DNA of 63,887 nucleotides, filler included, from Ferroacidibacillus organovorans (GCF_001642725.1; 3 parts of 3 records of this genome joined end to end with filler, not necessarily neighbours in it), one strand, 5' to 3'; counted from the whole stretch's first letter, positions 1 to 43,643 are shown. Made by a program: numbers and translations. Notes: a model not told the origin generated them from the sequence alone.

Positions 1-1
1 G

Positions 2-322
2 GCCTACAGCGCAGGAGTGGAGTCGCATGGGTTGAATCCGCGTGCCGTCGCGGTGATGAAGGAGGCAGGCATCGATATCTCGTCACATACGTCAAAATTG
101 ATTGATGATGAGATTCTCAATCGCGCGGATTACGTGATTACGCTTTGCGGTGATGCGGACGATCGCTGTCCCATGACACCGCCTCACGTGATGCGTCTGC
201 ATTTTGGATTTGAGGACCCCGCCAAAGCCACTGGTTCAGAAGAAGAGATCATGGCCAAATTTCGAGAGGTGCGCGATGCGATTCACGACCGCATACAAAC
301 GTTTATCAAAGAGACAATGTGA
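2..322 (+). CDS. arsC: Arsenate reductase, thioredoxin-dependent (5'-truncated by window edge)
   Basis: [27 protein letters not shown] and FEDPAKATG motifs of Bacillus-type ArsC; frame open to window start. Confidence 0.92.
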
Positions 323-362
323 CGCGCAATTGAAAATCGCTGGGGCGCTCTAGCGCAAACCG

Positions 363-411
363 ATGCGTATGGGCTAGCGGACTGTGGTGTGATCCGCTGA
401 CCCATACGCAT
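363..411. terminator. Hairpin between convergent arsC and thiC
   Basis: ATGCGTATGGG (363-373) / CCCATACGCAT (401-411) inverted repeat with further inner pairing. Confidence 0.7.
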
Positions 412-431
412 TTATACGCGATTCATGTGTG

Positions 432-2355
<1,924 letters not shown>

Positions 2356-2540
2356 ATTAAATTGTAAGTTCAGCATAGCACTGATCCTAAGTTGTGACAA
2401 CGCTACCTTCAGATTGGTTAGGAGAGTACATCGAAAAAGCATGTCGTACGTTTGCGAGTACAGGATTGCTTTTTTGTCTGCTTGTCGCCTATGATGAATC
2501 TAGGATTTCTTAGCGAAAATAAATGTAGTCTACAATTGCA

Positions 2541-2742
2541 TAGGTAAAGAAAAGGTGTTCATTTCAGAGACGTCCACTGCAACGCGATGGACGAACCTCT
2601 AAGCATGTGAACTTAAAAGGGAAACCGGTTAAAGTCCGGTGCGGTCCCGCCACTGTAAGGGTGAGACTCGATCATCGCTCACTGAGCATACGCTTGGGAA
2701 GGTTGACGCGTGGCTGTGAACCTGAGCCAGGAGACCTGCCAA
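2541..2742 (+). promoter_or_regulatory. Cobalamin riboswitch aptamer
   Basis: AGGTG...TAAAAGGGAAACCGGT...TCCGGTGCGGTCCCGCCACTGT...GGGAAGG...AGCCAGGAGACCTGCC (B12 box), upstream of cob genes. Confidence 0.95.
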
Positions 2743-2853
2743 CTTCTAAACACCCGCGAAAGGTATGCAGGTGAAATGTTGAATTTCGCCATTTGCACGC
2801 TTTCGTAAACCTACGGTCGATAGGGCGGTGTTTGTGGGCGGGACTTCTCGCGT

Positions 2854-2892
2854 ACAAGCGCTCTATCCTATCGAGGGCGCTTGTTTTTGTTT
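2854..2892 (+). terminator. Attenuator terminator of the B12 leader
   Basis: ACAAGCGCTCT...AGGGCGCTTGT stem plus T tract just before the cbiA RBS. Confidence 0.7.
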
Positions 2893-2923
2893 GTATGCGC
2901 AAAGAAAAAGGGGAGTAAAGCGT

Positions 2924-4333
2924 ATGGAACGACCGCGTATTGTCATTGCGGGCGCGAATAGCGGGGCTGGAAAGACGACCGTCACACTGGGCTTGCTCTC
3001 TGCGTTTATGAGACGTCACATGATTGTTCAAGGGTTTAAGGTGGGACCCGACTATATTGATCCAAGCTACCACACTGCGGTGACAAAGCGACCTTCTCGT
3101 AATCTCGATTCATGGATGATGGGACAGGATGTGATGCGCGAAGTATTTGAGCGGGGGAGCGAAGGCGCAGATCTCTCTGTGATTGAAGGCGTCATGGGGA
3201 TGTATGACGGCAAAGACCCGCTTGAAAATACGGGAAGCACAGCGGAAGTGAGTGTCCTTTTAAAAGCGCCGGTGATTCTCGTGGTCAATGTCTCTAGTAT
3301 GGCGCGAAGTGCGGCGGCGGTGGTACTTGGGTTTCAAACGCTCGATCCGAGCATTCATCTCGCGGGAGTGATTGTCAACCGCGTAGGGAGCAAGGGGCAC
3401 TATGAGCTGGTGAAGGCGGCCATTGAACAGGTTTGCGGGGTACCCGTCGTCGGATATCTCACAAAGCAGGAAACCTTGCGGGTTCCCGAGCGCCACTTGG
3501 GACTGATCCCGGCGCTTGAACGCGGTGAATTGGGTGATCTCTTTGACGCGTTGGCAAACGCCGTGGAGGAAACGGTGGACACGAAGCTCATCCTGCAAAT
3601 TGCGCGAGACGCGCCGCCGTTTGAAGCGGTCAAACCGACTTTGTTTTGCGGAGAAAAGCGTGCCGCCACGACGACGATTGCAATCGCGCGGGATCGGGCG
3701 TTCAATTTCTATTACCCTGAGAACCTCGAATTGCTTTCTTGGTATGGCGCAGAATTGGTTGAGTTTCGCCCGCTTGAAGGGGAGCCTATCCCAGAATCGG
3801 CGTGCGGCGTGTATATCGGAGGCGGCTTCCCTGAAGAGTACGCAGAAGAACTGAGTCATAAAACGGAGGTGCGCGCGAGCTTTCAGCGCGCGGTTCAGCG
3901 AGGGATGCCACTTTTTGCAGAGTGCGGTGGATATATGTATCTCGCGGATCAACTGATTGACCGTGCGGCAGCGCCGCACGCCATGGCGGGAATTCTAGGC
4001 ATGGAGATTACCATGCAAGCGCGACTGTCTGCACTTGGATATCGCGAGGTGACGGCGTGTACAGATACACTGCTGCTAAAAGCGGGAGAATGCGCGCGTG
4101 GACACGAGTTTCACTATTCGACCGTTTCTCGAAAATGGGAAGAGTCTTGGCCATTCGCGTATGAAGTTGCGGGATTGCGCGGAGTGTTTCGCGATGGATA
4201 CGCGTGTGGAAACCTTCTCGCCGGGTACACCCATCTGCATTTTGCGTCAAATAAGCAGATGGCGGAACGCTTCATTGCATCGTGCGCACACTGGCGGCGC
4301 AGCGCCGCCTCTGAACCTTTGCTGTCTTTGTGA
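2924..4333 (+). CDS. cbiA: Cobyrinate a,c-diamide synthase (CbiA/CobB)
   Basis: SGAGKTT, FKVGPDYIDP, IEGVMG, AECGGYMYL, GHEFHYS; start moved to ATG 2924 after a GGGGAG RBS. Confidence 0.95.
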   Translation: MERPRIVIAGANSGAGKTTVTLGLLSAFMRRHMIVQGFKVGPDYIDPSYHTAVTKRPSRNLDSWMMGQDVMREVFERGSEGADLSVIEGVMGMYDGKDPLENTGSTAEVSVLLKAPVILVVNVSSMARSAAAVVLGFQTLDPSIHLAGVIVNRVGSKGHYELVKAAIEQVCGVPVVGYLTKQETLRVPERHLGLIPALERGELGDLFDALANAVEETVDTKLILQIARDAPPFEAVKPTLFCGEKRAATTTIAIARDRAFNFYYPENLELLSWYGAELVEFRPLEGEPIPESACGVYIGGGFPEEYAEELSHKTEVRASFQRAVQRGMPLFAECGGYMYLADQLIDRAAAPHAMAGILGMEITMQARLSALGYREVTACTDTLLLKAGECARGHEFHYSTVSRKWEESWPFAYEVAGLRGVFRDGYACGNLLAGYTHLHFASNKQMAERFIASCAHWRRSAASEPLLSL

Positions 4334-4377
4334 CATGGTTTCGATGGATAATGTTATGAGCAGGGGGCAAACGTGTA

Positions 4378-5910
4378 TTGGCAAAATGTCTGATGGTGAT
4401 GGGTACATCGTCTAACGTAGGGAAAAGTGTATTGTGCACGGCGCTCTGTCGCATCCTCGCGCAGGACGGTCACCGGGTGGCGCCGTTCAAATCGCAGAAT
4501 ATGTCACTCAATTCAGCAGTGACGCCATCCGGTCGCGAAATTGGCCGCGCCCAGGCTGTTCAGGCGGCCGCTTGTGGCATTCCCCCCAGTGAGCATATGA
4601 ATCCCGTCCTTTTAAAGCCGACGAGTCACACCGCGTCACAAGTGATTCTAAAGGGTCGAGTTTATGAGACGAAGTCAGCGCGCGCGTATTTTACTGAGAG
4701 AACCGGAGAAATATGGGATGCTGTTGTCGAGAGCTTTCGCGAGTTGGAGCGTCACTATGACGTTTTGGTGATCGAAGGGGCAGGCAGTCCGGTTGAGATG
4801 AATCTAAAGCCGCGTGACATCGCCAATATGCGCACCGCAGAACTTGCTGACGCCGCGGTTCTGCTTGTGGCGGATATTGATCGCGGGGGGATTTTTGCAT
4901 CCGTTGTCGGAACGATGCACTTGTTGACAGAAGAAGAACGGTCGCGGGTAAAAGGGATTATTGTCAACAAATTTCGCGGTGATCCGTCCCTCTTTGACGA
5001 CGGGGTGCGCATGCTTGAAGCGTACGTTGGCGTACCTGTCTTGGGTGTCATCCCCTATCTACACGAAATTGGAATTGAAGAAGAAGATTCTGTCGCACTT
5101 GAAGAGGGACGTTATCGGCAACCCCAAATGCGACAAGAATCACAAACGTGTCTGCGGATCGCCATCTTGCAACTTCCTCATCTCTCAAATTTCACGGATT
5201 TTGATCCACTGTTTCTTGAACCGGATGTGCACGCTTATTTTTGCCTCCATCCGAATGAGGTGGTAGACGCGCACGTCGTGATTCTGCCTGGTTCAAAAAA
5301 CACGGTCGATGATCTCATCTGGCTTCGCGCAAACGGATTTGAAGGTGTGCTCAAACAAAAACACGCCGATGGCGCATTTATCGTGGGAATCTGTGGCGGC
5401 TATCAGATGCTGGGCGAAGAGATTCGCGATCCGGACGGTCAGGAGTCGATGATTGAGCGGATTGCAGGACTTCGCGAACTCCCCATCGTGACAACGCTTG
5501 CGCGAGAAAAGACAACCGTGCTTGTTCATGGACAAGCTGAGGGACCGTTTGCGTCAATTCCGATCACAGGTTATGAGATTCATATGGGGGAGACTGTGTC
5601 GGGTGTGGCGCACCAAGCGTTTGCGAGGATAAAGACAGGCGCGGATGGCGTGTGGCGGGAGGATGGCGCGGTCAGTTCGGATGGATTGGTCATGGGGACC
5701 TATCTGCACGGTATTTTTGACAACGATGTGTTTAGACACGCGTGGCTTGAAGCAGTTCGAAAGCGTGTGGGGAGCGACGTTCACACGCGTTCTAATGTGA
5801 CAATGTCTGTTCATCGATCGCAAGCGATGGATCGACTCGCGTCGACAGTGCGGGAGCATCTCGACATGCATGTGCTCTACAAACTTTTACACAGAGAGGT
5901 TGATTTGTGA
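4378..5910 (+). CDS. cobQ: Cobyric acid synthase (CobQ/CbiP)
   Basis: GTSSNVGKS, PFKSQNMSLNS, EGAGSP, DIDRGG, GICGGYQMLG, GTYLHG. Confidence 0.96.
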   Translation: MAKCLMVMGTSSNVGKSVLCTALCRILAQDGHRVAPFKSQNMSLNSAVTPSGREIGRAQAVQAAACGIPPSEHMNPVLLKPTSHTASQVILKGRVYETKSARAYFTERTGEIWDAVVESFRELERHYDVLVIEGAGSPVEMNLKPRDIANMRTAELADAAVLLVADIDRGGIFASVVGTMHLLTEEERSRVKGIIVNKFRGDPSLFDDGVRMLEAYVGVPVLGVIPYLHEIGIEEEDSVALEEGRYRQPQMRQESQTCLRIAILQLPHLSNFTDFDPLFLEPDVHAYFCLHPNEVVDAHVVILPGSKNTVDDLIWLRANGFEGVLKQKHADGAFIVGICGGYQMLGEEIRDPDGQESMIERIAGLRELPIVTTLAREKTTVLVHGQAEGPFASIPITGYEIHMGETVSGVAHQAFARIKTGADGVWREDGAVSSDGLVMGTYLHGIFDNDVFRHAWLEAVRKRVGSDVHTRSNVTMSVHRSQAMDRLASTVREHLDMHVLYKLLHREVDL

Positions 5911-6476
5911 TGAAGATTTACACGCGCGGTGGGGATCGCGGAAAAACTGCACTGATTGGTGGGGCGAGACGATTTAAAGACGATGCGCGCGTGGAGGCGT
6001 ATGGCGCCGTGGATGAGGCCGGTTCCTTTCTTGGGCTTGCCGCCAGTTGGCTTGAGTTGGACGGACAACGCGATCTCGTTGATCTGCTCACGCAGATTCA
6101 ACAGACCCTCTGGGATGTCGGGGCAGATCTGGCGGCGCCCACCTCAGAAAAGTATACCTATCGAACGCCTGAAGATGCGGCGGGTCTCATTGAGCCGCTG
6201 ATCGATCGATACAAAGAAGAAGCGGATGCTGTCAAACGCTTTATTCTGCGTGGTGGAACGGTTAGCGCATCCGCGCTGCAGGTTGCCTGTACGGTCGTGC
6301 GAAGGGCTGAGCGAAGAACGGTGAGTCTGATGCAACTCGAGGAGATCCATCAACCTGCGTTGCGCTATCTCAACCGATTGTCGGATCTCTTGTTTGTGCT
6401 GGCGCGTGCGGTAAACGCGCGCGCGGAGCAAAAAGAGGTGGAATACATTCACAGCACAGAGGTGTTTCGTGACTAG
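5907..6476 (+). CDS. Cob(I)alamin adenosyltransferase, PduO type
   Basis: KIYTRGGDRGKT, AYGAVDE, RRAERR, YLNRLSDLLF. Confidence 0.93.
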   Translation: MMKIYTRGGDRGKTALIGGARRFKDDARVEAYGAVDEAGSFLGLAASWLELDGQRDLVDLLTQIQQTLWDVGADLAAPTSEKYTYRTPEDAAGLIEPLIDRYKEEADAVKRFILRGGTVSASALQVACTVVRRAERRTVSLMQLEEIHQPALRYLNRLSDLLFVLARAVNARAEQKEVEYIHSTEVFRD

Positions 6477-6524
6477 GGGAATCTGTAAACAAAGACAGGC
6501 GGCTTCTCGCGGGGGAAATGTAGT

Positions 6525-7499
6525 GTGAATTTCCCACTGCTTGCGACAGTCAGTCTTTTGGTCGATCGTGTCGTCGGCGATCCACGAATTCTCCCGCATC
6601 CTGTGGTGCTTATGGGAAACGTCACGCGTTTCATGGAGCGGCGATTAAACAAGTGGCAATCGGATCGCGCACGCGCTCTCCAGATGAAAGGTGTTCTTCT
6701 CACTCTCATGGTCACGGGCGGCTCCTTTGTCATCACGTCGTGGACCTGCATGATCGCAGCGGCGGTTTCTCCATTGCTCGGGATTTTTGTAAACATCTGG
6801 TTGATTTCAACGACGATCGCGTGGAAGGGGCTGAATCGCGCGGGACGTGAGGTATACACTGCGCTCACAACCCGGGATCTTGATGCGGGAAGGAAAGCAG
6901 TCAGCATGATTGTCGGGCGCGATTCTGCGCAAATGAATGAGTCAGAGGTCGTCAGGGCAACGGTTGAGACGCTTGCGGAAAATGTGGTGGATGCGATCGT
7001 TTCTCCCGTGTTTTTCGCCATGCTAGGGGGCGCTCCGCTCGCCATGGCCTATCGCGCGGTGAACACCCTCGACTCGATGGTGGGGTATAAAAACGATCGC
7101 TATCGCGCTTTTGGGTGGGCATCTGCGCGGCTCGATGATGTTCTCAATTATCTACCCGCCAGAGCGACGGTTCTATTGCTCTATTTCGCTCTACTCCGCG
7201 ATCGACGTTCTGCAAACAGTGCTTGGCGTGTCATGTGCAGAGATGCGCGAAAACATCCCAGTCCGAATAGCGGATTTCCCGAATCCATGGTTGCGGGTGG
7301 ACTTTCTATTCAATTGGGTGGGCTGAATTATTATGACGGTGTGCCGTCACACCGAGCGCAGATGGGCGATCCGTTTCGCTCGCTTACACCCGAGCGGATT
7401 CTTGAAACGGTTCGCCTTGTCGCGAAAACGGGATGGCTCCTTTTTAGCGTTGCTGGATTGATCACACTCCTTGTGGCGGGATATTTGAACAGGACCTGA
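6525..7499 (+). CDS. cbiB: Adenosylcobinamide-phosphate synthase
   Basis: GDP..LPHPV, IVGRD, ETLAEN, NTLDSMVGY, HPSPNSG. Confidence 0.95.
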   Translation: MNFPLLATVSLLVDRVVGDPRILPHPVVLMGNVTRFMERRLNKWQSDRARALQMKGVLLTLMVTGGSFVITSWTCMIAAAVSPLLGIFVNIWLISTTIAWKGLNRAGREVYTALTTRDLDAGRKAVSMIVGRDSAQMNESEVVRATVETLAENVVDAIVSPVFFAMLGGAPLAMAYRAVNTLDSMVGYKNDRYRAFGWASARLDDVLNYLPARATVLLLYFALLRDRRSANSAWRVMCRDARKHPSPNSGFPESMVAGGLSIQLGGLNYYDGVPSHRAQMGDPFRSLTPERILETVRLVAKTGWLLFSVAGLITLLVAGYLNRT

Positions 7500-7513
7500 T
7501 GAGGTGACTGCTG

Positions 7514-8668
7514 ATGCATGGTGGAAGAGTCTATGAATATGCTGAGCAAAGAGGCGGCGCTCTGGATGAAATTGTAGATTTTAGTGCAAATCTGCATCCT
7601 TTGGGGCCTCCCGAGACTGTCACCCACGCTCTTCAAGTTGCACTTCATCTGGTGCGACACTATCCTGACTCGCGTCACTTGCGCGTGAAAGAGGTTTTGG
7701 CAAAACGCTATGACGTTGCGATGGATCATCTGGTTTGTGGCAATGGGGCGTCAGAGGTCTTGGAATTGCTGTTGCGCGTTCTGGCGCCTCAGCGAACGTG
7801 GATTATGGAACCAGCGTTTCGTGAGTACGAAGCAATCGCCCGCAGAGTTGGGTCGAAAATCGAACGCGTATCGATGATGGCTTTTGGCGACCGATTTTAT
7901 TTTCCGCTCAATCGAATTGTGGAATCGGCGCGCACTGGAGATTGCGTCGTCTTGAATACACCTCATAACCCTTCTGGAATGCACGTTTTAAAAGTCGATG
8001 TGTCGGATGCGGTCAACACTTTATTGGACCACAATGTAGATGTGATCGTCGATGAGTCATTTATCGATTTTTTAGAGAATGAAAAGTCAGAGACTTGGCT
8101 GCGTGAGTCGACGGTGAATCCTCATCTTCACACCATCCGCTCTGCCACAAAGGTGTTTGCCATTCCAGGATTGCGATTCGGGTTTGCCGTCGTTCACCCC
8201 GATGTCGCAAAAAAAATTGAGAGCGATCGCGATGGCTGGAGTGTCAATGTTCTAGCGCAAGAAGCGGCCATCGCCGCGTATCAGGATCGCGCATGGATTC
8301 TGCGGACGCAGCAGTGGCTCGTACAGCAGCATGCTTTTATTCACTCTAGTTGGGGGATGGATGCGCGCATACACGTCTATCCGTTTGCTGTGAATTTCTT
8401 TCTTGTTACGTTCTCACACGCCTCATTAAGTCGATTTATTCAAACTGAATTACACCGAAGCGGATATATTGTGAGAAATTGCGAATCGTTTCATGGATTG
8501 GGTGCATCGCATATGCGCATTGCGATTCGCACAGCAGAAGAAAATTACGCGCTCTGGAATGCGTATTTAAACGCGATGGACGCATATCAAGATCACTCCC
8601 CAATGTCATCATCTAAACGCAGAGGGGAGTCAGCGCATACTGTGGATGATGGAGACCATAAAAAATAA
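7514..8668 (+). CDS. cobD: Threonine-phosphate decarboxylase
   Basis: HGG, DFSANLHPLG, GNGASE, PHNPSG, DESFIDF, SATKVFAIPGLRFG; last gene of cob operon; 3' end overlaps recombinase. Confidence 0.88.
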   Translation: MHGGRVYEYAEQRGGALDEIVDFSANLHPLGPPETVTHALQVALHLVRHYPDSRHLRVKEVLAKRYDVAMDHLVCGNGASEVLELLLRVLAPQRTWIMEPAFREYEAIARRVGSKIERVSMMAFGDRFYFPLNRIVESARTGDCVVLNTPHNPSGMHVLKVDVSDAVNTLLDHNVDVIVDESFIDFLENEKSETWLRESTVNPHLHTIRSATKVFAIPGLRFGFAVVHPDVAKKIESDRDGWSVNVLAQEAAIAAYQDRAWILRTQQWLVQQHAFIHSSWGMDARIHVYPFAVNFFLVTFSHASLSRFIQTELHRSGYIVRNCESFHGLGASHMRIAIRTAEENYALWNAYLNAMDAYQDHSPMSSSKRRGESAHTVDDGDHKK

Positions 8669-10209
8669 ACGTGAACACTGCCGTCGCGATCGATGACCAC
8701 TCGATCAAGCACTTGACGAAGCGCCAGGCGCAGTGTGCTGTCATCGTACGGTGTCGATGGTGTAAATAAGAGTGCTGCACCTAGTGACACCGTGTCTTCT
8801 GAAGAAGTGGGTGCTTGTTCGATCTTTTTTTCGAGAAGGCGGTTCATCTCACTCTGCAATATCCTTTCTTGATCAATGAGGTTTCGCTGACTCTCCTCAA
8901 TGAGCGCAGTGGGGAAGATACCGCGACGAAACGCTTCCAGGTTGCGTTTTTGTTCTTTTCGATTGATAGAGATTTGCATTTTTAACGCTTGCATGCGCTG
9001 TTCACTTCGATCCACCCCTAAAGAGGCGATTTCCCTACGAGACTGTTGGAACTGGAGCCACCCAGAGTCTTCCTGAAATTTCCTGTTTAACACAGCAAAA
9101 ATCATTTCGCTAAGCGTGTCATAATTTGTGGCGCTGTGGTTGTCACACGCTGCCTTGTTGATCCTTTTTACTTTTGAACACACAACATACTTATAGCGCT
9201 CTCGTTCACGTTTTTTGCGCCCTGTGACAATCATGCTTCCTCCACACGATGCGCATCTCAAGAATCCGGCGAGGAGATTGGCGCTTTGTTTGACACTCTT
9301 GTTGCGCGCTTTGAATTTCATGAGATGTTGCGCGAGATCAAAGCGATCTTGACGAATAATGGGTGGATGCGCGTGAGGGATAACGATCCAATCATCCTCG
9401 CTGCGAAATTGAAGACGCTTTACGGGAAGATCAATTCTGCGAGACTTTTCGATGTCATGCATCGTCGTGCGTTTGTGCGCAATAAGTGTGCCTACGTACA
9501 CTTCGTGACGGAGAATGGCGTTTACGGTTGACGCTTGCCAGGCTGTGTTTTTCTGATACTGGTGCTTGAGTGCTGTGGGAACCTGTCGATGATTGAGTGT
9601 GTTTGCAATCTCTTTTGTTCCTTTTCCAGTAAGGTACATATCAAAAATTTCGCGCACGATAGGCGCTGTTTGTGGATCGGGGACAAGCTTTTTCGCACCG
9701 TCTTTCAAATAACCGTAGGGCGTGATGTTTCCGATGTGGCGTCCGCGGCGGGCGGATTGTCGCAGGCCGCGTTGAATCGCTCTTGACATTTCTTTGCTTT
9801 TATAGGCGGCTAACATTGCGTGAACGGTAAAAATCATTTCAGAATTGCGTCCCTCGATGGCAGAATCATAGCCCTCTTCAATACTGATCAAGCGTATTCC
9901 GTATACCTGTTCAAGTCGCTTCTTTGTGTTGAATGCGTCACTCAAGTCGCGGCTGAATCGGGAGATCGCTGTAAACAAAATGACTTCAAATCGCCCAGCC
10001 CGCGCATCAACGAGCATGCGCTGTACTTCATTTCGATGCGTCATCTCAGTCCCTGAAATACCTGCGTCATTATAAATCAGAGACGGATCTGTTTTGAGTT
10101 GAATGCGTTCGGCGTGCTCTTGGCACGTGGCAATCTGATTGGCAGGGGAGTCGCGTTGGGTGTCTGAGTCTGTCGATACGCGAACATAGATCGCGGCCCT
10201 TTTGATCAT
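8593..10209 (-). CDS. Large serine recombinase (candidate gerE-element integrase/excisase)
   Basis: AIYVRVST catalytic motif, ISRFSRD, PYGY, LLAGFLRCASCG zinc ribbon, coiled coil. Confidence 0.95.
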   Translation of the reverse strand: MIKRAAIYVRVSTDSDTQRDSPANQIATCQEHAERIQLKTDPSLIYNDAGISGTEMTHRNEVQRMLVDARAGRFEVILFTAISRFSRDLSDAFNTKKRLEQVYGIRLISIEEGYDSAIEGRNSEMIFTVHAMLAAYKSKEMSRAIQRGLRQSARRGRHIGNITPYGYLKDGAKKLVPDPQTAPIVREIFDMYLTGKGTKEIANTLNHRQVPTALKHQYQKNTAWQASTVNAILRHEVYVGTLIAHKRTTMHDIEKSRRIDLPVKRLQFRSEDDWIVIPHAHPPIIRQDRFDLAQHLMKFKARNKSVKQSANLLAGFLRCASCGGSMIVTGRKKRERERYKYVVCSKVKRINKAACDNHSATNYDTLSEMIFAVLNRKFQEDSGWLQFQQSRREIASLGVDRSEQRMQALKMQISINRKEQKRNLEAFRRGIFPTALIEESQRNLIDQERILQSEMNRLLEKKIEQAPTSSEDTVSLGAALLFTPSTPYDDSTLRLALRQVLDRVVIDRDGSVHVYFLWSPSSTVCADSPLRLDDDIGE

Positions 10210-10212
10210 GGG

Positions 10213-10440
10213 TCATCGGTCCAGTGAAGCGAGAGGATGTTTTATAACTCCTGTGTCGACCGATTCACAATTTCGTTTTACATCGTCTAAGGCCAGTGCA
10301 AAGATGTGGACCGCCAGTTCTTCAAAAGAAGGCCCGTGATTTCGGAGGTGAAAAGTAATGATTTTTTCGTTTGTGAGTTTGCTTTGTTTCCATTTCACGC
10401 AATCGTCAAGGGAAACATGATTTAATGTCATTGCCGTCAC
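10213..10440 (-). CDS. Small protein upstream of recombinase, candidate recombination directionality factor
   Basis: 75 aa, GGAG RBS before GTG, ends 3 bp before recombinase ATG; function inferred from position only. Confidence 0.5.
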   Translation of the reverse strand: MTAMTLNHVSLDDCVKWKQSKLTNEKIITFHLRNHGPSFEELAVHIFALALDDVKRNCESVDTGVIKHPLASLDR

Positions 10441-10509
10441 GCTCCAGTCTTTATAACGGTATGCGGATGCGGCCTGTCAACTTGTTAAGCGAGTTTCCAT
10501 ATTGACTAA

Positions 10510-10596
10510 CTCACTAATGTCATGAAAAAGCTAAACGTAAAAGGCCGGTCGCAGGCTGTTGTTGAATTGGTCAGACTGGGTGAAATACAGATTTAG
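10510..10596 (+). pseudogene. gerE: 3' fragment of split gerE (LuxR-type mother-cell regulator)
   Basis: Translates (L)TNVMKKLNVKGRSQAVVELVRLGEIQI*, matching the B. subtilis GerE C-terminus ISNAMQKLGVKGRSQAVVELLRMGELEL; in-frame TAA at 10507-10509; syntenic with marR-murI-rph. Confidence 0.9.
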
Positions 10597-10600
10597 TGAG

Positions 10601-10635
10601 ATCCCCCCGTGTTTTTTCACAGGGGGGAATTTTTT
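10601..10635 (+). terminator. gerE terminator
   Basis: TCCCCCCGTG...CACAGGGGGGA stem followed by TTTTTT immediately after the gerE stop. Confidence 0.75.
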
Positions 10636-10689
10636 CGGTATACTGTGATAAAATTTTCCTCATAGTTAGGAATGAATTGTGGAGGTATT

Positions 10690-11010
10690 ATGGCGAGGGC
10701 TTACGGGTTATTTATTTTGGCAGGGCTCGCTGAAATTGGCGGGGGATACCTCGTCTGGCAATGGATGAGAAATGGGAAACCGCTTTGGGTCGGCATTCTT
10801 GGCGGGGTGATTCTTTTTCTTTACGGTGTGATTGCCACACGTCAGGAGTTTGCATCGTTTGGAAGAGTGTATGCTGCATATGGTGGGGTATTTATCATCT
10901 TATCCCTTTTGTTTGGATGGGGTGTAGATCATCGACGCCCAGACATTCAAGAGTGGCTGGGCGCCGCAATATGTCTCGTAGGTGTGTCCGTGATGCTTTT
11001 ACGCAAATAA
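10690..11010 (+). CDS. YnfA family small membrane protein
   Basis: [11 protein letters not shown] and [21 protein letters not shown] before ATG 10690. Confidence 0.92.
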
Positions 11011-11015
11011 ATAAA

Positions 11016-11052
11016 CCCTAGAGAAAGAGGAGAATTCCCTCTTTCTCTAGGG
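11016..11052. terminator. Hairpin between convergent genes
   Basis: Perfect 15-bp stem CCCTAGAGAAAGAGG / CCTCTTTCTCTAGGG. Confidence 0.8.
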
Positions 11053-11071
11053 CAGGGAGATTCAACAAGGA

Positions 11072-11254
11072 TTAACCGAGTTGATTGATATGTTGCCCCT
11101 TTGAAGGCTCAACGCCGTGATCGCCGTCGTGATCACTCTGCGACGCCGCGGTCTGTAAGCTATTCGCAGTCGATGTTGTTTTATTGTGGGCGTTTGGACT
11201 CGCTGCACCCTGAACTAAACCTAAACCTGTTTGTGATGATAGACTTGTTATCAT
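11072..11254 (-). CDS. Small Ser/Thr/Gln-rich hypothetical protein with DHDGD motif
   Basis: GGGGAGG RBS, 60 aa, followed by terminator. Confidence 0.6.
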   Translation of the reverse strand: MITSLSSQTGLGLVQGAASPNAHNKTTSTANSLQTAASQSDHDGDHGVEPSKGQHINQLG

Positions 11255-11296
11255 TCTCTTCGCCTCCCCGTGTAAAGAGAATATGGGTGAAAAAAC

Positions 11297-12034
11297 TTAC
11301 GAGTGGCTGGACGTGTTATAGACAGACCCTGTGACAGAGGTAGTACTGTTTGCCTGCAATTGAGAGATTGAAGACTGTAAGCGACTCTCAAATTGACTGA
11401 AATCACGTTGAGTCTTGGCTGCTTGACGATCCAGTTTTTTGGTGGCCTTCTCTAATTGGTGCAGCGTTTCCTTAGAGACATTCGTTACAGTCGAATCTCT
11501 TGCGACAAGGGATGTCAGCCGTTCCGCGTCGCTCTTGAATTTTTGGAGATCCTTTGCTTCGTTACGGGTGATTTCGCGGAGTATCTCTGAAAGATGACGT
11601 TCCAAGGAAGACGGCTTTTTGCTATTTTCCTGTTTGTGATCGTGGGAGAGCGTCTCTTTCATTCGCTCAATTGTTTTTTGCATCGTGGCGAGCTCATTTT
11701 TAATTTCCTGGAGTGTCGTGGCGCTTTTCAAATTCGCCATCTCTTTTTCCAAGGTTGTCGTGTCGATCTGTGCGGGTAGGGGAAGGGCAGTTATTCCGGA
11801 TAATGTTCCATTTGCGCTGGCCGTCGTCGCCAGCGTAATGGACGTTTTTGCTTGCGCGATGAGACTGTCGAGGGATTGGCGAGATGAATCTACAGTGGTT
11901 TGGTCTGTCGTCAAAGCAGTTTGTGCGGAAGCGAGCGCCTGCACGTCACTTACCGTGTGGTGTGTGTCTGCAAATGCAGGCAACGTGGTAGTGAGCAAGA
12001 ATGCAGAAGTCGTTAAAAGAATCAATCGTTTCAT
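11297..12034 (-). CDS. Secreted helical/coiled-coil hypothetical protein
   Basis: AGGAGG RBS; Sec signal MKRLILLTTSAFLLTTTLPAFA-D; heptad-like body; C-terminal SVTGSVY. Confidence 0.8.
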   Translation of the reverse strand: MKRLILLTTSAFLLTTTLPAFADTHHTVSDVQALASAQTALTTDQTTVDSSRQSLDSLIAQAKTSITLATTASANGTLSGITALPLPAQIDTTTLEKEMANLKSATTLQEIKNELATMQKTIERMKETLSHDHKQENSKKPSSLERHLSEILREITRNEAKDLQKFKSDAERLTSLVARDSTVTNVSKETLHQLEKATKKLDRQAAKTQRDFSQFESRLQSSISQLQANSTTSVTGSVYNTSSHS

Positions 12035-12077
12035 CGGAATTCCTCCTGGCATCATTTTGCCCATCGGGGGAGAGCGA

Positions 12078-12165
12078 TGGCAACTGGCTGGCTTGAGGCA
12101 AGTAGAATCTCTGCCTGTTAGCCCCTTTAGCTTTGCGTCACGCGTTTTCACGCATTTTGCCTTAA
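12078..12165 (-). promoter_or_regulatory. Cyclic di-GMP-I (GEMM) riboswitch
   Basis: Minus strand AGGCAAAATGCGTGAAAACGCGTGACGCAAAGCTAAAGGGGCTAA...GCCAGCCAGTTGCC matches the GGCAAA / GAAA / GACGCAAAGC / CTAA / CAGCCAGTTGCC consensus. Confidence 0.9.
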
Positions 12166-12214
12166 TAGGACTATACCATAGTTTTACAGTTTGTCCAGCC
12201 CTCTAGAATTCAAA

Positions 12215-13075
12215 TTATGTAAAAAGAATGGTTTTGTTGTTGTGCACGAGAATGCGATCTTCTGCATGCCATTTTACGGCGCGCGCAAGCACGTTTTTTT
12301 CGATGAGCCTACCGATCTTTTTGAGTGATGGAACATCATCGCTGTGTTTGACACGCGTGATATCCTGCTCGATGATTGGACCTGCGTCTAGTTCATCTGT
12401 GACATAATGTGCTGTCGCGCCAATAATTTTCACACCTCGATCATAAGCGCGTTCGTAAGGGCGAGCGCCACTAAAAGCAGGTAAAAAGGAGTGATGAATG
12501 TTAATGATTTGATTAGGATAGTGCTCTATCATTTGAGGTGAAAGAATCTGCATGTAGCGCGCGAGTACGATGAGATCGACACGTGATTCGAGGAGGCGGA
12601 GTTGCGCGTTTTCAGCGTCTATCTTCGTGTCTTTTGTGATGGGTATATAATGAAAGGGGATAGAAAACTCATGCGCTGTTTTTTTATAGAGATCGTGATT
12701 GCTGATGATCATCGCAATGTCGACAGGTAGCATATGGGTTCGCTGTTGCCAAAGAAGTTCCATAAGGCAGTGATCTTCTCGCGAAACGAAGATGGCGACA
12801 CGCAGTCGTTGATTCGGATCGGTGAGGCGGTAGGTCATTCCTGAAGAAGTTTTAAGCTTGAGGAGATGGCAATTCAAATCAGTCAGTGCATGCGCCCCGT
12901 GATGGTCAAATGCGATGCGCATAAAAAACATTCCGTCCGTTGGATTTGTACTGAATTGCGCTGATTCAGTGATATTTGCGCCGATTTGATAGAGCGCGGA
13001 AGAGACGTTTGCGACGATGCCGGGCTGATCCTTGCAACTCACGAGAAGGCGGGCTTTTTCGTTGTACTGTCGCAT
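12215..13075 (-). CDS. purU: Formyltetrahydrofolate deformylase
   Basis: ACT domain SCKDQPGIV, VLARYMQILS, NIHHSFLPAF, DAGPIIEQ; exact start uncertain. Confidence 0.95.
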   Translation of the reverse strand: MRQYNEKARLLVSCKDQPGIVANVSSALYQIGANITESAQFSTNPTDGMFFMRIAFDHHGAHALTDLNCHLLKLKTSSGMTYRLTDPNQRLRVAIFVSREDHCLMELLWQQRTHMLPVDIAMIISNHDLYKKTAHEFSIPFHYIPITKDTKIDAENAQLRLLESRVDLIVLARYMQILSPQMIEHYPNQIINIHHSFLPAFSGARPYERAYDRGVKIIGATAHYVTDELDAGPIIEQDITRVKHSDDVPSLKKIGRLIEKNVLARAVKWHAEDRILVHNNKTILFT

Positions 13076-13200: not shown

Positions 13201-13641
13201 TTGCTGGTGACCTTTCAAGAGGAAAGCAACGTTTTTGAGATTGAGCGGTTACTGCGAGCGATCGCGGGAACGGTTCGCAAAAAAGGACGATCGATTCTCG
13301 TTAACTTTGATATCACAATTCCTCAGTTCGACGCGTTGGTTTACGCGTTTGAATCCGGAAATGTAACGATTGGCGATCTTAGTGCAAAACTTGGTCTCGC
13401 GTACTCTACAACGACTGATCTGGTGGACCGCTTGGCGCTTCGGGGATATGTGGTGCGAGTGCGCGATGATGAAGACAAGCGCGTTGTGAGGGTGCGGGTT
13501 CAAGAGGCGGGACAGCGATTAATCGATGAAGTGCTGCGTGCGCGGCGCGCGTATTTATCAGGTGTCCTTGAGAAGCTGGCAGACACGGAACAACTTCATT
13601 TGAAGTCAGTACTCCAATTATTAGAGCGGCACCTCATCTAG
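13201..13641 (+). CDS. MarR family regulator (YsmB-like position)
   Basis: ITIPQFDAL, YSTTTDLVDRL, DKRVVRV winged helix. Confidence 0.9.
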   Translation: MLVTFQEESNVFEIERLLRAIAGTVRKKGRSILVNFDITIPQFDALVYAFESGNVTIGDLSAKLGLAYSTTTDLVDRLALRGYVVRVRDDEDKRVVRVRVQEAGQRLIDEVLRARRAYLSGVLEKLADTEQLHLKSVLQLLERHLI

Positions 13642-38053: not shown

Positions 38054-39520
38054 TTATACACCCCCATGAAAATGAATGAGAATGCGATCTGGATAAACGG
38101 TGATTTCTTTTATGATCGTGCGTAGCAGTTCTTTTCTTTCCTGTACCGTTGCAATCCCCCACGTCGCGCGAAATGAGCCTAGAATGGTTTTAAGCGTGGC
38201 GAGATCCAGGGATTTGGCATTCATTTGTTCCAATGCATGAATCTTCTCGGCGAATAGAGTTTCCTTGCTGCGGAGTTCGTTCAAACGATCTTTAAGGACA
38301 TTTGATTCAATATCACCATTTTCAAATGCATTCATCCATCGATTTTTCCGTGAAGTGATTTTTGATATTTCATTACGTAGAGCATCCATTTCAGCCTGAT
38401 CATCTGATCTTAATGTAAACGTCGACATATCACGACTTAAATCCTGATGATACTGTTCTAAGTGTGTCAAAACAGCATTTTCAAGGTGACTCTCTTTTTG
38501 CCGAGGCATATCACAAAGTCCTGAATGGATTCTCTCGACGCATGTATAATAGCGTCTAGGCTCACTTTCCAATTTATTCTTCTTGTATCGCGTATCTCCT
38601 GACATTGAATAGCCACATTTACCACAGCGCAGGATTCCTGTCAACGAATAGGTGCCCGTACCACTTCGACTCGGCATTGTTTTGCGTTTACTTCTTAGTT
38701 CCTGTGCACGATTAAAATTCTCTAGACTAAGAATTGCTTCGTGATTCCCCTCTTCGATCATTGAATTCGTTTGTCTCCTTCCCTTTAGATCTCTGTATCC
38801 ATAACGCACCATGCCGCAGTAAAGCGGGTTTTGTAGAACATATTTTAGATTGTTCAATGTCCATCTTTTATTGGACGCAAGCTGTGGATGCGTAGGATCA
38901 TTGAGCCACTTCAATATCTTGGGTGTGCCGCTTCCTGCCAGATAGCGATCGTAAATTTCTTTAACGATTGCTGCTTCAGCATGATTGATTTTCAGATTTC
39001 CATTGTTGTAATCATATCCAAAAGGTCGATGACCCCCTGACCATTTCCCTTGCCGAGTCATTTCAATCTGTCCCATTTTAGTGCGTTCAGCGAGATTTTC
39101 ACGTTCCCACTGTGCCATCGCCCCGACGAGTGTGATAAAGAGTCGGCCGATCGCCGTTGTCGTATCATACACTTCTGTGGCGCTCCGAAATTTCGTTTGA
39201 TGGCGATCGAAGTAGTCTAGAAGCGTATGGAGATCAGAAACAGAGCGTGTTAGTCGATCTAATTTATAGACAAGCACAATTTTATGATCAGAATGGTCAG
39301 CTTTTAAATCATTGAGCAAGCGCTTTAACTCAGGCCGATCCATGTTTTTGGCGCTGACGCCTTCTTCGATGTAGCTATCTTGGATGACCCAGTCTTGCGA
39401 TAATGCATAGGCCTTTAACCTCTCACGCTGCGCGTCAATCGAATATCCCTCATCAGCCTGTTCATCCGTCGAAACACGTATATAAATACGCGCAAACCAT
39501 GTTTCGCTCATGGCGATCAC
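38054..39520 (-). CDS. Large serine recombinase (boundary integrase)
   Basis: IYIRVSTDEQ, YKLDRLTRS, AQWERE, PFGY, LTGILRCGKCG. Confidence 0.96.
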   Translation of the reverse strand: MIAMSETWFARIYIRVSTDEQADEGYSIDAQRERLKAYALSQDWVIQDSYIEEGVSAKNMDRPELKRLLNDLKADHSDHKIVLVYKLDRLTRSVSDLHTLLDYFDRHQTKFRSATEVYDTTTAIGRLFITLVGAMAQWERENLAERTKMGQIEMTRQGKWSGGHRPFGYDYNNGNLKINHAEAAIVKEIYDRYLAGSGTPKILKWLNDPTHPQLASNKRWTLNNLKYVLQNPLYCGMVRYGYRDLKGRRQTNSMIEEGNHEAILSLENFNRAQELRSKRKTMPSRSGTGTYSLTGILRCGKCGYSMSGDTRYKKNKLESEPRRYYTCVERIHSGLCDMPRQKESHLENAVLTHLEQYHQDLSRDMSTFTLRSDDQAEMDALRNEISKITSRKNRWMNAFENGDIESNVLKDRLNELRSKETLFAEKIHALEQMNAKSLDLATLKTILGSFRATWGIATVQERKELLRTIIKEITVYPDRILIHFHGGV

Positions 39521-40072: not shown

Positions 40073-40300
40073 TCATGATTCGGATGGGGGCATTTGTTCG
40101 AAACTAATTTTCAGCATGACGTCGAGTGCGGTGGTGATTTTTTCAAGGCTCTCCAAGCTTACATTACCGATTCCACGTTCAATCATACCGACATATCGTT
40201 TTGAAAGTCCTGACGCTTGTGCCAAGGTCTCTTGGCTCATGCGCTGTTTGGTGCGGAGTTGACGAATTCTCATCCCCACTTCTCGACATAAATCACTCAG
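40073..40300 (-). CDS. XRE family helix-turn-helix regulator (possible CTG start)
   Basis: IRQLR...MSQETLA...YVGMIERG..NVSL; GAGGTG RBS 7 nt before CTG at 40300. Confidence 0.88.
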   Translation of the reverse strand: MSDLCREVGMRIRQLRTKQRMSQETLAQASGLSKRYVGMIERGIGNVSLESLEKITTALDVMLKISFEQMPPSES

Positions 40301-40439
40301 ACGGGTTCACCTCGATTTATATGGATGGATCTATGGTAAAAGCTTATCATCTGTCTCTTAAAAATTCATGCATGACGGATAACTATAGTGCATATACCGA
40401 AAATCCTTTGGACACCATGTACGCCAAGGGAGTGAAGGG

Positions 40440-40604
40440 ATGGAGAGGAATCGAATTCGTGTTCGCTCGATTCAATATGTGTACGATCCAAAGGCCGGTC
40501 GTCTGTGGCTGGATGTGTTAGCGCAAGCGCTCTATCGCTCGTGTCAAGATCATAAAATGGATACAAAGCACGAGCCCAACGAGGATGTGAATCCATGCGA
40601 ATGA
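40440..40604 (+). CDS. 54-aa protein coupled to tandem recombinases
   Basis: GGGAG RBS; MERNRIRVRSIQYVYDPKAGRLWLDVLAQALYRSCQDHKMDTKHEPNEDVNPCE; stop overlaps the recombinase start region (ATGA 40601-40604). Confidence 0.6.
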   Translation: MERNRIRVRSIQYVYDPKAGRLWLDVLAQALYRSCQDHKMDTKHEPNEDVNPCE

Positions 40605-42130
40605 CGGTGGCGTATTACCGAAGTTCTCTCGAACAACAGGAAAATTCCGTTCCGATGCAAAAGGACAACGCAAAACTTTATGCACAAAAGCACGGAATGA
40701 CCCTTCAAGATCACTACGACGATGAGGGGAAGTCGGCACGAAAAAAATCAGAGATCGAACGGCCCGCGATGCATCGATTGCGACAGGACATCCGCTCTAA
40801 TTTAATTGGGACGATTATTGTCTATAAACGGGATCGTCTGGCGCGAAGAGCGAGTGAGTACATGGAATTTTATCGTCTGTGCCGCAAATTTGACGTGAAG
40901 ATCATTTTTACGTCTGGAAAGGAATACCCGGTGTTTTACTCACCGTTCGGGGAATTCATTGAACTCATTTACGCGGGAATTATTGAGCGTGAGGCGGAAG
41001 TAATCGTTGAGCGTCTACGTGAAACGCAAATCACGAATTTCGTGAACAAGAAGACGGTGGGAAATCTACCGTATGGCCTGGTGGCGATTGAAGGGAAACA
41101 AGATAAACCGGAGATTCATTTTCAGTCAGACGAGGTAAAGGAAGAGATCAAAGGGATTTATTCGGACTTTCTCCAGTGGTCGACTACGCGAGGGGAGCAA
41201 AAATTCTCTGCCTTTGTTCAGCTGCAAAATGAGAGACATCCGAGACGGGAGCGCTTGGAATCCGAGGAGGAGGAGATAGAATACGATGAAGGAGGCGCTA
41301 AGGAACCAAACGCCAGATGGACCGATACCAATTTGCGTGGTCTTTTGACGAATTCACTCTACATGGGAAAACATCGCAAAACATGGGAGGATCAAATGTA
41401 CGAAGTGGATCGGCCTGAGTGCGCGATCATTTCTCCTGAAGCATGGGAAGCGACGAATCAAGCGATGAAGCCGTTTCTTGCGGTTCAACATGAAACCAAG
41501 AAACGAGAATTTGTTCTTGAGGGATTGATCGTTTGTGAATTTTGCAAACATCCTCTCGTGGGGAGAACATCGTGGCGAAAACAGGAACCGATGGATGGGT
41601 ATTATTGTCCCACCAAAACGTGTCCTGTGCGTATCTCCGCAACGAAATGTGAGGAAAAAATTGATGAAGAAGTCGTGGGGTTTCTGTCCATCCTCCTAAA
41701 GGAGAATGGGGATGCATTGTATCGGGAGGTGATGGCAGAGGAACGCAGGCGAATTAAAGCGGAGATGGAGAAGCTTCAACATCAGCGGACGATTCTACAG
41801 ACGCGTTTAAAGAAGGATGTATCGCAGTATATGCAAACGCGCGTGAGTATGCCTGAGATTTTTCAAACGAAAACGAATCTCGACAATCTCCATCATACGA
41901 TGCACAGACTGGAGGCAGAACTTCGTTCATTGCATGCGTTTCCGCTGGGGACAAAGCGGCGAAACATCCGCATTCAAGATCTAAAGATCGAGCTGAAGCA
42001 AGGGTCGGCCGTGCGTCGGCGAGAACTACTCGCGGATCTCCTTTTGGAAGTGCGGGTCAGCAAAAATACGATCGAGGCTCTTGTGTTTCGCCACCCATTT
42101 CAAAAGGTGGTGTCCCATGTCTCTTCATGA
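40595..42130 (+). CDS. Large serine recombinase (first of tandem pair)
   Basis: VAYYRSS, YKRDRLAR, LPYG, LEGLIVCEFC...YYCPTKTC, coiled coil. Confidence 0.9.
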   Translation: MRMTVAYYRSSLEQQENSVPMQKDNAKLYAQKHGMTLQDHYDDEGKSARKKSEIERPAMHRLRQDIRSNLIGTIIVYKRDRLARRASEYMEFYRLCRKFDVKIIFTSGKEYPVFYSPFGEFIELIYAGIIEREAEVIVERLRETQITNFVNKKTVGNLPYGLVAIEGKQDKPEIHFQSDEVKEEIKGIYSDFLQWSTTRGEQKFSAFVQLQNERHPRRERLESEEEEIEYDEGGAKEPNARWTDTNLRGLLTNSLYMGKHRKTWEDQMYEVDRPECAIISPEAWEATNQAMKPFLAVQHETKKREFVLEGLIVCEFCKHPLVGRTSWRKQEPMDGYYCPTKTCPVRISATKCEEKIDEEVVGFLSILLKENGDALYREVMAEERRRIKAEMEKLQHQRTILQTRLKKDVSQYMQTRVSMPEIFQTKTNLDNLHHTMHRLEAELRSLHAFPLGTKRRNIRIQDLKIELKQGSAVRRRELLADLLLEVRVSKNTIEALVFRHPFQKVVSHVSS

Positions 42131-43643
42131 AATCATGGAACGTTTGAGGCAGCCGGATACGCTTTTGCGTGCCGCGTTTTATGGCCGTCATTCGACCAAG
42201 AATCAAGAAATGATGATGCAAGAGAATACCGCCGAGCGATTTTGCAAGAAGTATGGTTGTGAAATCGTGGAAAAATACCTCGATCCGGATGTATCGGCTA
42301 CGAAAGTGAAAATGACCCAACGCAAAGCGTTGTTGCGGATGATCAATGATGCGAGTGATGGCAAATTTGATGTCATCCTTGTGTACAGTGACAGTCGTTT
42401 GGCGCGTGATCCGATTGAACATGCTCAAATCCGCATCGCTTTGCGGGGCATCCCTGTCTTTCTGTGTGACACCGAAACCTTGTACAATCCCAAGAATGTG
42501 GAAATTTTAACGCAATTGATCCGCGATGGCGTTTCCAAATTTGAAGTGGATCAGACCTCGGAACGAACCCGGGATACGTTTCTTTACATGGTGAAACACG
42601 GTGAAGCGATCAATGGCAGGTTGCCCTACGGGTATGTAAAACGGGAGGGTCGTTTTGTTATTGAATCTTTTCAACAAGCCGAACACATTCGGTCCATTTT
42701 TATGTGGTATTCAAACGGCGACGGATTCTCGGCGATCGCGAAACGCCTGGGGTGGCTCAAAGCGGATCGCGTCACACCAAATAAAGAGCGGGTCAAGTCG
42801 ATTGTCTTGAATCCCTTTTATGCCGGTTATCGTAGCATGGACAAAGTCAAAAAGAAGGCGCGCATGAGCTTTCAACCGCTCGCGCAGTGGATCATGGGTT
42901 CCGATCCTCACATCGAGCCGGTACTTTCGTTTGAAGAGTGGAGAACGTGCTACGATCTGTATGAGAAAAAACAGAAAAGGGAAATCGCGCCGAAGACTTT
43001 TAAGACACCGTTTCTATTGGCGGGGCTTCTCGTCTGTGGAGATTGCAGGAAAAGAGGGATGGAAAACTTTTTGCGCGGCCAAAATCGCCAAACACGCTCA
43101 ACATTTGGAAGGACAGGATCTCGGTATTATGAATGTCCGGAATGCAGACTCTGCATGGACATGGGGGCATTGCATCAAATTCTGATCGATGACGTTTTTC
43201 ATCCGTGGGTCTCGAAAAATGAGCGGCAGTGGGAGACGGCGGTCGAACGGGTGAAAGAAAAGATCGATCACGAGAAAGCGGCGTTGGCGGCGGCGATCGA
43301 ACATGCAGAAATCAAGATCGTAAAGGATCAATTGGAGCACGAGGTTGCGCGCGATCACCAGAAAGGTCTCGATAATGCCAGTGAACTGTGGGGTGTGATG
43401 GACGAATACTGCCGTGTGCTCAAGGAACAGATGGACAAAACGCGAGAAGAGCAGGATGAATTAAAGCAGATGCAGCGACGCCTAAACGCGTGGGTCACCG
43501 ATGAGAGCGCACTGCGAGAGGTGCGCTTGGATCTCTTGAACGAACAAGATTTCCGCAGGCTGACGCTTGCGTTGATTACCGAGGTAGTGGCGACATCGGT
43601 TGAGGATCAAACGATTGAACTGGATGTCGTAGGTCGATGGTAG
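42117..43643 (+). CDS. Large serine recombinase (second of tandem pair)
   Basis: AAFYGRHST, SRLARD, LPYGY, LNPFYAG, LLAGLLVCGDC...YECPEC; overlaps upstream gene by 14 nt. Confidence 0.9.
   Translation: MSLHEIMERLRQPDTLLRAAFYGRHSTKNQEMMMQENTAERFCKKYGCEIVEKYLDPDVSATKVKMTQRKALLRMINDASDGKFDVILVYSDSRLARDPIEHAQIRIALRGIPVFLCDTETLYNPKNVEILTQLIRDGVSKFEVDQTSERTRDTFLYMVKHGEAINGRLPYGYVKREGRFVIESFQQAEHIRSIFMWYSNGDGFSAIAKRLGWLKADRVTPNKERVKSIVLNPFYAGYRSMDKVKKKARMSFQPLAQWIMGSDPHIEPVLSFEEWRTCYDLYEKKQKREIAPKTFKTPFLLAGLLVCGDCRKRGMENFLRGQNRQTRSTFGRTGSRYYECPECRLCMDMGALHQILIDDVFHPWVSKNERQWETAVERVKEKIDHEKAALAAAIEHAEIKIVKDQLEHEVARDHQKGLDNASELWGVMDEYCRVLKEQMDKTREEQDELKQMQRRLNAWVTDESALREVRLDLLNEQDFRRLTLALITEVVATSVEDQTIELDVVGRW

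Follow-up and report, generated by a model that had tools for sequence, protein, structure and literature searches.

The window analysed here is a stretch of 63,887 nucleotides (nt), read on one strand, from Ferroacidibacillus organovorans (GCF_001642725.1; three parts of this genome joined end to end with filler), and its first part carries a piece of the sporulation gene gerE beside the gene for a large serine recombinase (LSR). The product of gerE regulates the spore coat, as a transcription factor that acts late in the mother cell. Positions 10510–10596 (+) translate into LTNVMKKLNVKGRSQAVVELVRLGEIQI, 28 residues that begin with L and close at a TAG stop (10594–10596), and a TAA stands in the same frame directly 5′ of them, at 10507–10509. 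The fragment matches positions 38–55 of PF00196 (GerE), and its final 24 residues, MKKLNVKGRSQAVVELVRLGEIQI, recur unchanged at the end of the intact GerE of a relative, G017. An earlier note on this DNA had described a GerE C-terminal fragment preceded by an in-frame TAA, which the translation and the profile match bear out; the size of 28 residues holds when the leading L is counted, and a 27-residue reading of the same 87 bases does not. The gerE terminator, said there to be intact, is also present: a hairpin followed by a U-run comes directly after the stop, and none of 200 shuffled sequences folds as well. The hairpin is bulged and was missed by a simple terminator scan. Directly to the left, as the note had further stated, lie the LSR gene, which encodes a three-domain protein of 538 amino acids (aa), and, 3 nt from it, a small open reading frame (ORF) of 75 aa.

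The 5′ part of gerE is missing from the window, again as claimed, and was found on another contig of the same assembly. This draft (G000) consists of 98 contigs (3.03 Mb, 96.8% complete), among which C40 makes up window positions 1–23179. A search of the whole assembly with PF00196 gave five matches above the cut-off. One of them, at C60:13603–13734, covers model positions 2–45 (E = 3.8e-14) in a 63-aa frame that ends ...MKSLLTIREREVFELLVQDKTTREIAEILYISEKTVRNHISNV-RWAMG*; the 5′ half of gerE itself occupies G000:C60:13594–13722, ends ...EKTVRNHISNV and is followed by element sequence. The other four matches lie in frames of 229–251 aa, the size of response regulators, and a second, intact small gerE was not found in the assembly. 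Both outcomes answer tests that the earlier note had proposed, namely that a 5′ half should exist and that no intact gerE should lie elsewhere.

C60 ends in the same 10 bases with which C40 begins, and both contigs are colinear, at 77–79% identity, with a single contig of the sister species G001 (C60 13898–15813 with L061 3526–5440; C40 6–11010 with L061 5455–16485). The two halves of gerE, which share a strand and are in direct orientation, are thus separated by 12,621 bp, with the frame interrupted between C60:13718 and window position 10516. Joining them in silico at the shared AA of the Asn codon in RNHISN restores an open frame of 67 aa from an ATG, or, if counted from a GTG with AAGGAGGG as a good ribosome-binding site, of 75 aa. 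The join proposed in the note yields an intact GerE, in which 69 of the 75 residues are identical to those of the protein of G017. Because the halves are co-directed on adjoining contigs and their join gives an intact GerE, 10516/10517 is attR of a serine-recombinase element, as had been suspected, and gerE is split by this element at its native locus. In Bacillus subtilis, gerE precedes ysmB–racE–rph; here a MarR-type gene, racE and rph lie downstream of the gerE 3′ segment, so that this neighbourhood is present, as the note had it, with three extra genes intervening.

Nine genomes gave both attL and attR, and their comparison places the crossover. Around the Asn codon, the stretch that is identical between the two sites ranges from 15 bp down to 2 bp (AATGT in the window's genome). 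The bases common to all nine pairs are AA, positions 1–2 of the Asn codon in RNHISN, and in G041 (locus L038, titled Alicyclobacillus acidiphilus) they are the whole of the core. In the reconstructed attP, arm complementarity peaks with AA as the centre, a clear maximum in eight of the nine genomes: summed over all nine, 128 of 216 positions are dyad-symmetric there (14 of 24 in the window's genome), against 35–70 at sixteen other shifts. The attB site is far less symmetric (45/120). The TGAC (10503–10506) and GTCA (10519–10522) to which the earlier note had drawn attention do exist, but the crossover is not centred on them; its true centre is the AA at 10516–10517, about 4 bp to the right. 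Nor is the symmetric partner of the element arm in gerE, where it had been placed: it is at the opposite end of the element.

The LSR gene lies about 300 bp from attR. Judged by its sequence, its product is a large serine recombinase, with three domains, a catalytic serine and a zinc ribbon. The Y8-R10-V11-S12-T13 motif and the four zinc-ribbon cysteines are invariant across 31 LSR homologues, and the nearest solved structure is that of the SPbeta integrase SprA (9dxh; E = 1.3e-17, residues 52–516 aligned). Directly upstream of the LSR gene and in the same orientation, an ORF of 55–118 aa is present in all 14 aligned loci. Because the small ORF precedes the LSR just as skr precedes spoIVCA in skin and sprB precedes sprA in SPbeta (PMC6957869), we read the small ORF as a candidate recombination directionality factor (RDF).

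The small ORFs of the 14 loci share an ungapped core of about 45 residues, and identity to that of the window is 56% in the sister species G001 and 15–24% in the other aligned loci. An AlphaFold model made from the alignment has a β-hairpin followed by one long helix (mean pLDDT 80.5). Pfam and PHROG searches with all 14 members returned nothing below E = 0.06, and an ESM Atlas search with the small ORF gave a best feature score of 0.86 and no lead. Foldseek comparison of the model with the PDB had a best E-value of 2.0, with the SPbeta integrase–RDF entries at ranks 45–46 (E = 6.7). A profile search against 1.84 billion representatives retrieved 37 proteins at E ≤ 0.001, 16 of them at E ≤ 1e-10, nearly all of 52–119 aa. 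By these searches the family appears small and previously undescribed.

An CATACCGT box lies at 10456–10463 (−), 32 nt upstream of the small-ORF ATG, and a CATAC[AC]NT box is found within 60 nt of the small-ORF start in five of the six loci that have the module orientation of the window. The CATACCGT box is a possible, weak candidate for the −10 element of a mother-cell sigmaE-type promoter, by comparison with the sigmaE −10 consensus of B. subtilis. Another candidate upstream of the small ORF, TTGACA-N18-TTATAA, was spotted by eye and rejected, as it fails the second-hexamer rule of a sigma-70 scan.

Substitutions were counted between the window's genome and the sister species G001. The gerE 5′ half shows one synonymous and no non-synonymous difference, and the 3′ half seven synonymous and about one non-synonymous. 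The LSR has a ratio of non-synonymous to synonymous substitution rates (dN/dS) of 0.155 and the small ORF one of 0.305; these values are rough because dS, at ~1.1, is near saturation. In the cargo genes of the element dS is 1.08–1.18, and in the flanking UPF0060 gene it is 1.10, an equality that dates the insertion to before the split of the two species. By these counts, both gerE halves and all parts of the element, the LSR and the small ORF included, have remained functional and under purifying selection ever since. A sigmaK-type promoter, AC-N17-CATAnnnTA, stands upstream of gerE in all 14 loci compared, nine with a split gene and five with an intact one. In the window's genome SpoIVA is intact, and so is sigK, with a match above the cut-off on C81.

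Two further features of the gerE 5′ region were observed. Between C60:13594–13722 and its counterpart in G001 (L061 3147–3275), only 1 of 129 bases differs (dS 0.03, with ~1.1 for the neighbours), so that the nucleotide conservation of the 5′ half exceeds what the protein needs. The leader between the sigmaK-type promoter and the ribosome-binding site (C60 ~13480–13570) contains conserved blocks, ...gtaactgtatccc...cttgt...caaggaggga..., which are common to all 14 loci and to both families; the leader is possibly a regulatory RNA or the binding site of a protein.

To place the locus among its relatives, the 64 available genomes of the order Alicyclobacillales, that of the window included, were searched with the intact GerE of G017. 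A full-length match was found in 42 genomes and a match ending at residue 43–51, as in a split gene, in 16; the remaining six, with completeness of 62–85%, gave paralogue-level matches only. The gene is thus split at this site in 16 of 58 gerE-bearing genomes, which belong to the window's family in nine cases (of 19 genomes) and to the other family in seven (of 45). An LSR 44–73% identical to that of the window was present in 14 of the 16 split genomes. At the loci retrieved, 12 of these LSR-bearing genomes have the gerE 3′ fragment adjacent to the LSR, and in G016 it is 3.7 kb away. The LSR relatives from a genome collection, which include records of A. acidiphilus and A. fodiniaquatilis, adjoin a gerE 3′ fragment in five cases out of five. 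In the sister species G001, a single contig contains both attL and attR and, between them, a colinear element of ~12.7 kb whose LSR is 73% identical to that of the window.

By match coordinates, the elements range from ~1.9 kb to ~33 kb. The smallest, in G052 (~1.9 kb), is made up of attL, an 82-aa ORF, an LSR and attR only, and since all of it is co-oriented with gerE, this minimal unit could be driven by read-through from the gerE promoter. At this locus (L066, G052:C1:3279800–3283500), the LSR frame crosses attR and terminates within the gerE 3′ segment. G010 has an LSR copy with its own small ORF 1.6 kb after attL, cut by the contig end (L074, C22:20500–23473), and a full LSR that adjoins the gerE 3′ fragment on another contig (L073, C76). 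Either tandem elements or a single element with two recombination units could account for this arrangement.

A 15-row tree of the LSR groups its members by genus, with the two host families interleaved. An approximately unbiased (AU) test on 14 rows, leaving out the row of an unclassified metagenome-assembled genome, rejected monophyly of the window's family, f1 (p far below 0.05, with the log-likelihood 147.6 lower), a group defined with the tree already in view. Because the LSR tree conflicts with the host families, we conclude that the recombination unit has moved between lineages over long times; within genera, the tree indicates that it is inherited vertically. The two-gene unit, a small RDF-like family with its own LSR clade, may thus be stable within genera and mobile between families, and gerE may be its site in about one in four of the sampled Alicyclobacillales species.

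The same pattern was sought at the level of the class, in a GerE search of 401 genomes. About thirty genomes outside the order have a best E-value typical of a 5′ fragment, though members of their families show full-length values. Five candidates from five families were examined, chosen by that E-value, and all five have separate 5′ (residues 2 to 45–52) and 3′ (residues 36–40 to 67) GerE matches. In three of the five, the best relative of the window's LSR (33–35% identical) lies within ~200 bp of the gerE 3′ fragment. That gerE splitting at one dinucleotide is a common, recurrent developmental switch in Bacilli, reaching beyond a few Bacillus cereus strains, is a tentative generalization to which we give a little under even odds.

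A rearranged gerE has a precedent in B. cereus ATCC 10987, where the gene is split by the 28.6-kb gin element (Abe et al. 2017, PMC5595907). According to that report, gin recombines within CATCTCAAA (Ile-Ser-Asn), with cleavage predicted at the terminal AA; GirC and the 42-aa GirX (girX, BCE4620) excise it at around T4 of sporulation; and the gerE 5′ fragment alone is inactive (PMC5595907). The element described here is found in the same gene, at the same Ile-Ser-Asn codons and with the same crossover AA, here that of the Asn codon in ...HISN. Both elements are non-phage, and both have a serine recombinase and a small accessory protein, the latter a candidate in our case. They differ in recombinase number (three in gin, from the girAB operon and girC, versus one LSR), in size (28.6 kb versus 12.6 kb), in GC content (described as below that of the host in gin, equal to that of the genome here), in cargo (restriction–modification and recJ versus ars, thiC and cob) and in the order to which the host belongs. 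Compared by description, GirX is encoded apart from girC, whereas the 72–75-aa ORF lies directly upstream of the LSR gene.

We place the element in the sporulation-gene-intervening class (skin, SPbeta, vfbin and gin), other members of which resemble it in part. Like skin of B. subtilis (sigK; SpoIVCA and Skr), it interrupts a mother-cell gene, and it recalls the order attL, small rdf, LSR, attR, in which skr (64 aa) is described as directly upstream of spoIVCA (PMC6957869). Excision of skin is confined to the mother cell, hence its vertical inheritance, and the same is proposed here. By contrast, skin, a defective prophage, has another target gene, and among the genes of the present element none of phage type was seen; skr also overlaps spoIVCA by 101 nt where we find a 3-nt gap. 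SPbeta (spsM; SprA and SprB) also combines an LSR with a small RDF, for which we have a candidate; unlike our element it is an active phage, of 134 kb, with another target, and its integrase is reported to be constitutive and its RDF sporulation-controlled (PMC5595907). Bacillus glycinifermentans BGLY likewise has gerE occupied by an element, the integrase of which is given as 52% identical to GirC; that element differs in being a prophage, and the source describes its rearrangement as not verified (PMC5595907). In the literature covered, which takes in little of the subscription journals, split gerE was reported only in the B. cereus group and B. glycinifermentans and not in Alicyclobacillales. 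What is known, then, is the experimental gerE rearrangement in B. cereus; what is new is a gerE-splitting element of that kind, with a probable rearrangement, in a distant order of acidophilic spore-formers.

From this anatomy we infer, with a probability of roughly 80%, that gerE is rebuilt by programmed excision in the mother cell, the excision itself as much as its timing and cell type. Purifying selection, the conserved sigmaK-type gerE promoter, the 16 split genomes and the gin precedent support this indirectly. Vegetative cells and the forespore would carry the element in its integrated state and could make only a truncated 5′ GerE. Expression of the recombinase and of the small protein, as RDF, in the mother cell would let the two recombine attL with attR at the central AA. 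The element would leave as a circle, and the 75-aa gerE frame would be restored behind the sigmaK-type promoter. The spore would retain the integrated copy, and for this reason the element would be inherited vertically.

Several observations weigh against this proposal. Orthologous LSR genes were not detected in two of the split genomes, G005 (99% complete; best match 34% identical, on a different contig) and G018 (60% complete), so a split gerE does not always go with an LSR of the window's type. The assignment of the small ORF as RDF comes from synteny, and the support for its promoter is one 8-nt box set against a consensus; a sigma-70 scan of the minus strand upstream of the small ORF gave no site. 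The near-saturated dS blurs the measures of selection. The sole thiC, cbiA, cobQ and cbiB of the genome are an odd cargo for an element that leaves the chromosome, albeit in a terminal cell. Last, no excised or joined form was seen: when contigs of one isolate run and three metagenome runs were compared with window positions 1–12500, no joint or loose contig end at 10516/10517 was among the matches listed; contigs drop rare forms, so this is uninformative on excision.

The best-placed alternative, which we nonetheless regard as improbable, is an ordinary integrative island that uses gerE as its attachment site and is excised sporadically or under stress, in a host that lives with a disrupted gerE. 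The cargo, an ars operon and metabolic genes, does resemble that of a fitness island; the AU test, with its post hoc group, implies horizontal transfer; and the sporulation promoter is still a candidate. Against this, a gene that is never rebuilt would decay, yet both halves of gerE keep their protein sequence across a dS of ~1.1, and the gerE promoter is kept in each of the nine split loci examined. The element is moreover colinear and equally diverged in the two species, which speaks for a stable, vertically inherited structure, and its GC content equals that of the genome (51.5% versus 52.0%), with lower values for the LSR (48.4%) and the small ORF (43.0%).

Rather less probable again is that the locus is a fossil, its recombinase or sites non-functional and gerE dead in the lineage. 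The intact frame of the LSR, with its catalytic motif and a dN/dS well below 1, is hard to reconcile with such decay, as are the preserved attP symmetry (14/24 positions) and a gerE 3′ fragment identical in protein to that of intact relatives. The Alicyclobacillaceae type strains are moreover all reported, in a species description, to form spores (PMC11123200). A fossil would fit the lack of direct evidence for excision and the faster evolution of the small ORF relative to the LSR. An assembly artefact, in the form of a chimeric contig or a repeat-induced mis-join, which a draft of 98 contigs with the gerE halves on separate ones might invite, is very remote: a single contig of the sister species spans the entire colinear element from attL to attR, contigs of three metagenome runs, each from a different study, cross attR with the same arrangement, and gerE is split in the same way in fifteen more genomes of the order.

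If gerE is rebuilt in the mother cell as we propose, excision may also alter the state of core metabolic genes, namely the sole thiC and the cobalamin-finishing genes, and the germ line might be unable to afford the loss of the element, which in this genus has come to enclose them. Annotation pipelines will call gerE absent or a pseudogene in split genomes, wrongly if the gene is rebuilt. The frequency of the split in the order, the conserved two-gene unit with its undescribed small protein family and the housekeeping type of the cargo add to the interest of the system, as does the convergent targeting of one dinucleotide in a 225-bp gene by recombinases that are only 33–50% identical to one another. 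The relatives offer a two-gene attL–rdf–int–attR unit of ~2 kb and about 15 natural triplets of LSR, small ORF and att sites, useful for studying site choice and direction in serine integrases. Alicyclobacillus, a member of the order, is linked in the literature to fruit-juice spoilage.

The element totals 12,621 bp. Its right-hand 10.5 kb are window positions 1..10517, and its left-hand 2.1 kb lie at G000:C60:13719–15832; the features are collected in Table 1. By tblastn, thiC, cbiA, cobQ, cbiB and arsB were each found as a single copy in the assembly, all within the element. Among five relatives with an intact gerE, thiC is on a contig other than that of gerE in three and was not found in two; these contigs are small and uninformative on the origin of the cargo.

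Table 1. Features of the split gerE locus and of the element (window coordinates unless a contig is named)
Feature	Position	Strand	Evidence or remark
arsR	on C60		PF01022
arsB	on C60		PF02040, E = 9.5e-177
arsC, 3′ part (low-molecular-weight-phosphatase-type arsenate reductase)	2..322	+	G001 orthologue matches PF01451; gene begins on C60
thiC	432..2186	−	PF01964, E = 2.5e-191
Thiamine pyrophosphate (TPP) riboswitch ahead of thiC	2252..2359	−	RF00059, 56.2 bits, above gathering score
Cobalamin riboswitch ahead of cob genes	2554..2740	+	RF00174, 91.3 bits
cbiA-like	2828–4333	+	Pfam
cobQ-like	4378–5910	+	Pfam
PduO-type adenosyltransferase	5907–6476	+	Pfam
cbiB/cobD	6525–7499	+	Pfam
Class I/II aminotransferase	7514–8668	+	Pfam
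LSR, 538 aa	8593..10209	−	PF00239 (Resolvase), PF07508 (Recombinase), PF13408 (Zn_ribbon_recom)
Small ORF, candidate RDF	10213..10440	−	75 aa from GTG; likely ATG start at 10431 = 72 aa
attR	10491..10542	+	Central dinucleotide AA 10516–10517; element arm left, gerE arm right
gerE 3′ segment, Asn codon to stop	10516..10596	+	Translation; PF00196 positions 38–55; substitution counts versus G001
gerE terminator, hairpin and U-run	10601..10636	+	−20.6 kcal/mol, z −4.0
UPF0060 gene, ORF of unrecognised family, purU, MarR-type gene, racE, rph	downstream of the gerE 3′ segment, in this order		Pfam

Within the element, the TPP (−) and cobalamin (+) riboswitches are placed back to back and share a single intergenic region of 500 bp. 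At 8593–8668 the aminotransferase (+) and LSR (−) genes overlap at their 3′ ends by 76 bp; in the sister species the overlap is 31 bp.

Elsewhere in the genome, a sigK/sigE-type gene on C17 is found in two parts on one strand, ~6.2 kb apart (G000:C17:34688–35026 and 41242–41592; TIGR02846 positions 9–122 and 110–226). An LSR-like gene (C17 ~40136–41056, −) adjoins the 3′ part of this split sigma-factor gene, and the locus looks like a second, skin-like intervening element. The second contig of the window holds three more LSR genes, at 38054–39520 (−), 40595–42130 (+) and 42081–43643 (+), of which the last two are tandem and overlapping, as in ccrAB or girAB. A tblastn search gave 14 further LSR-like matches on 10 contigs of the assembly.

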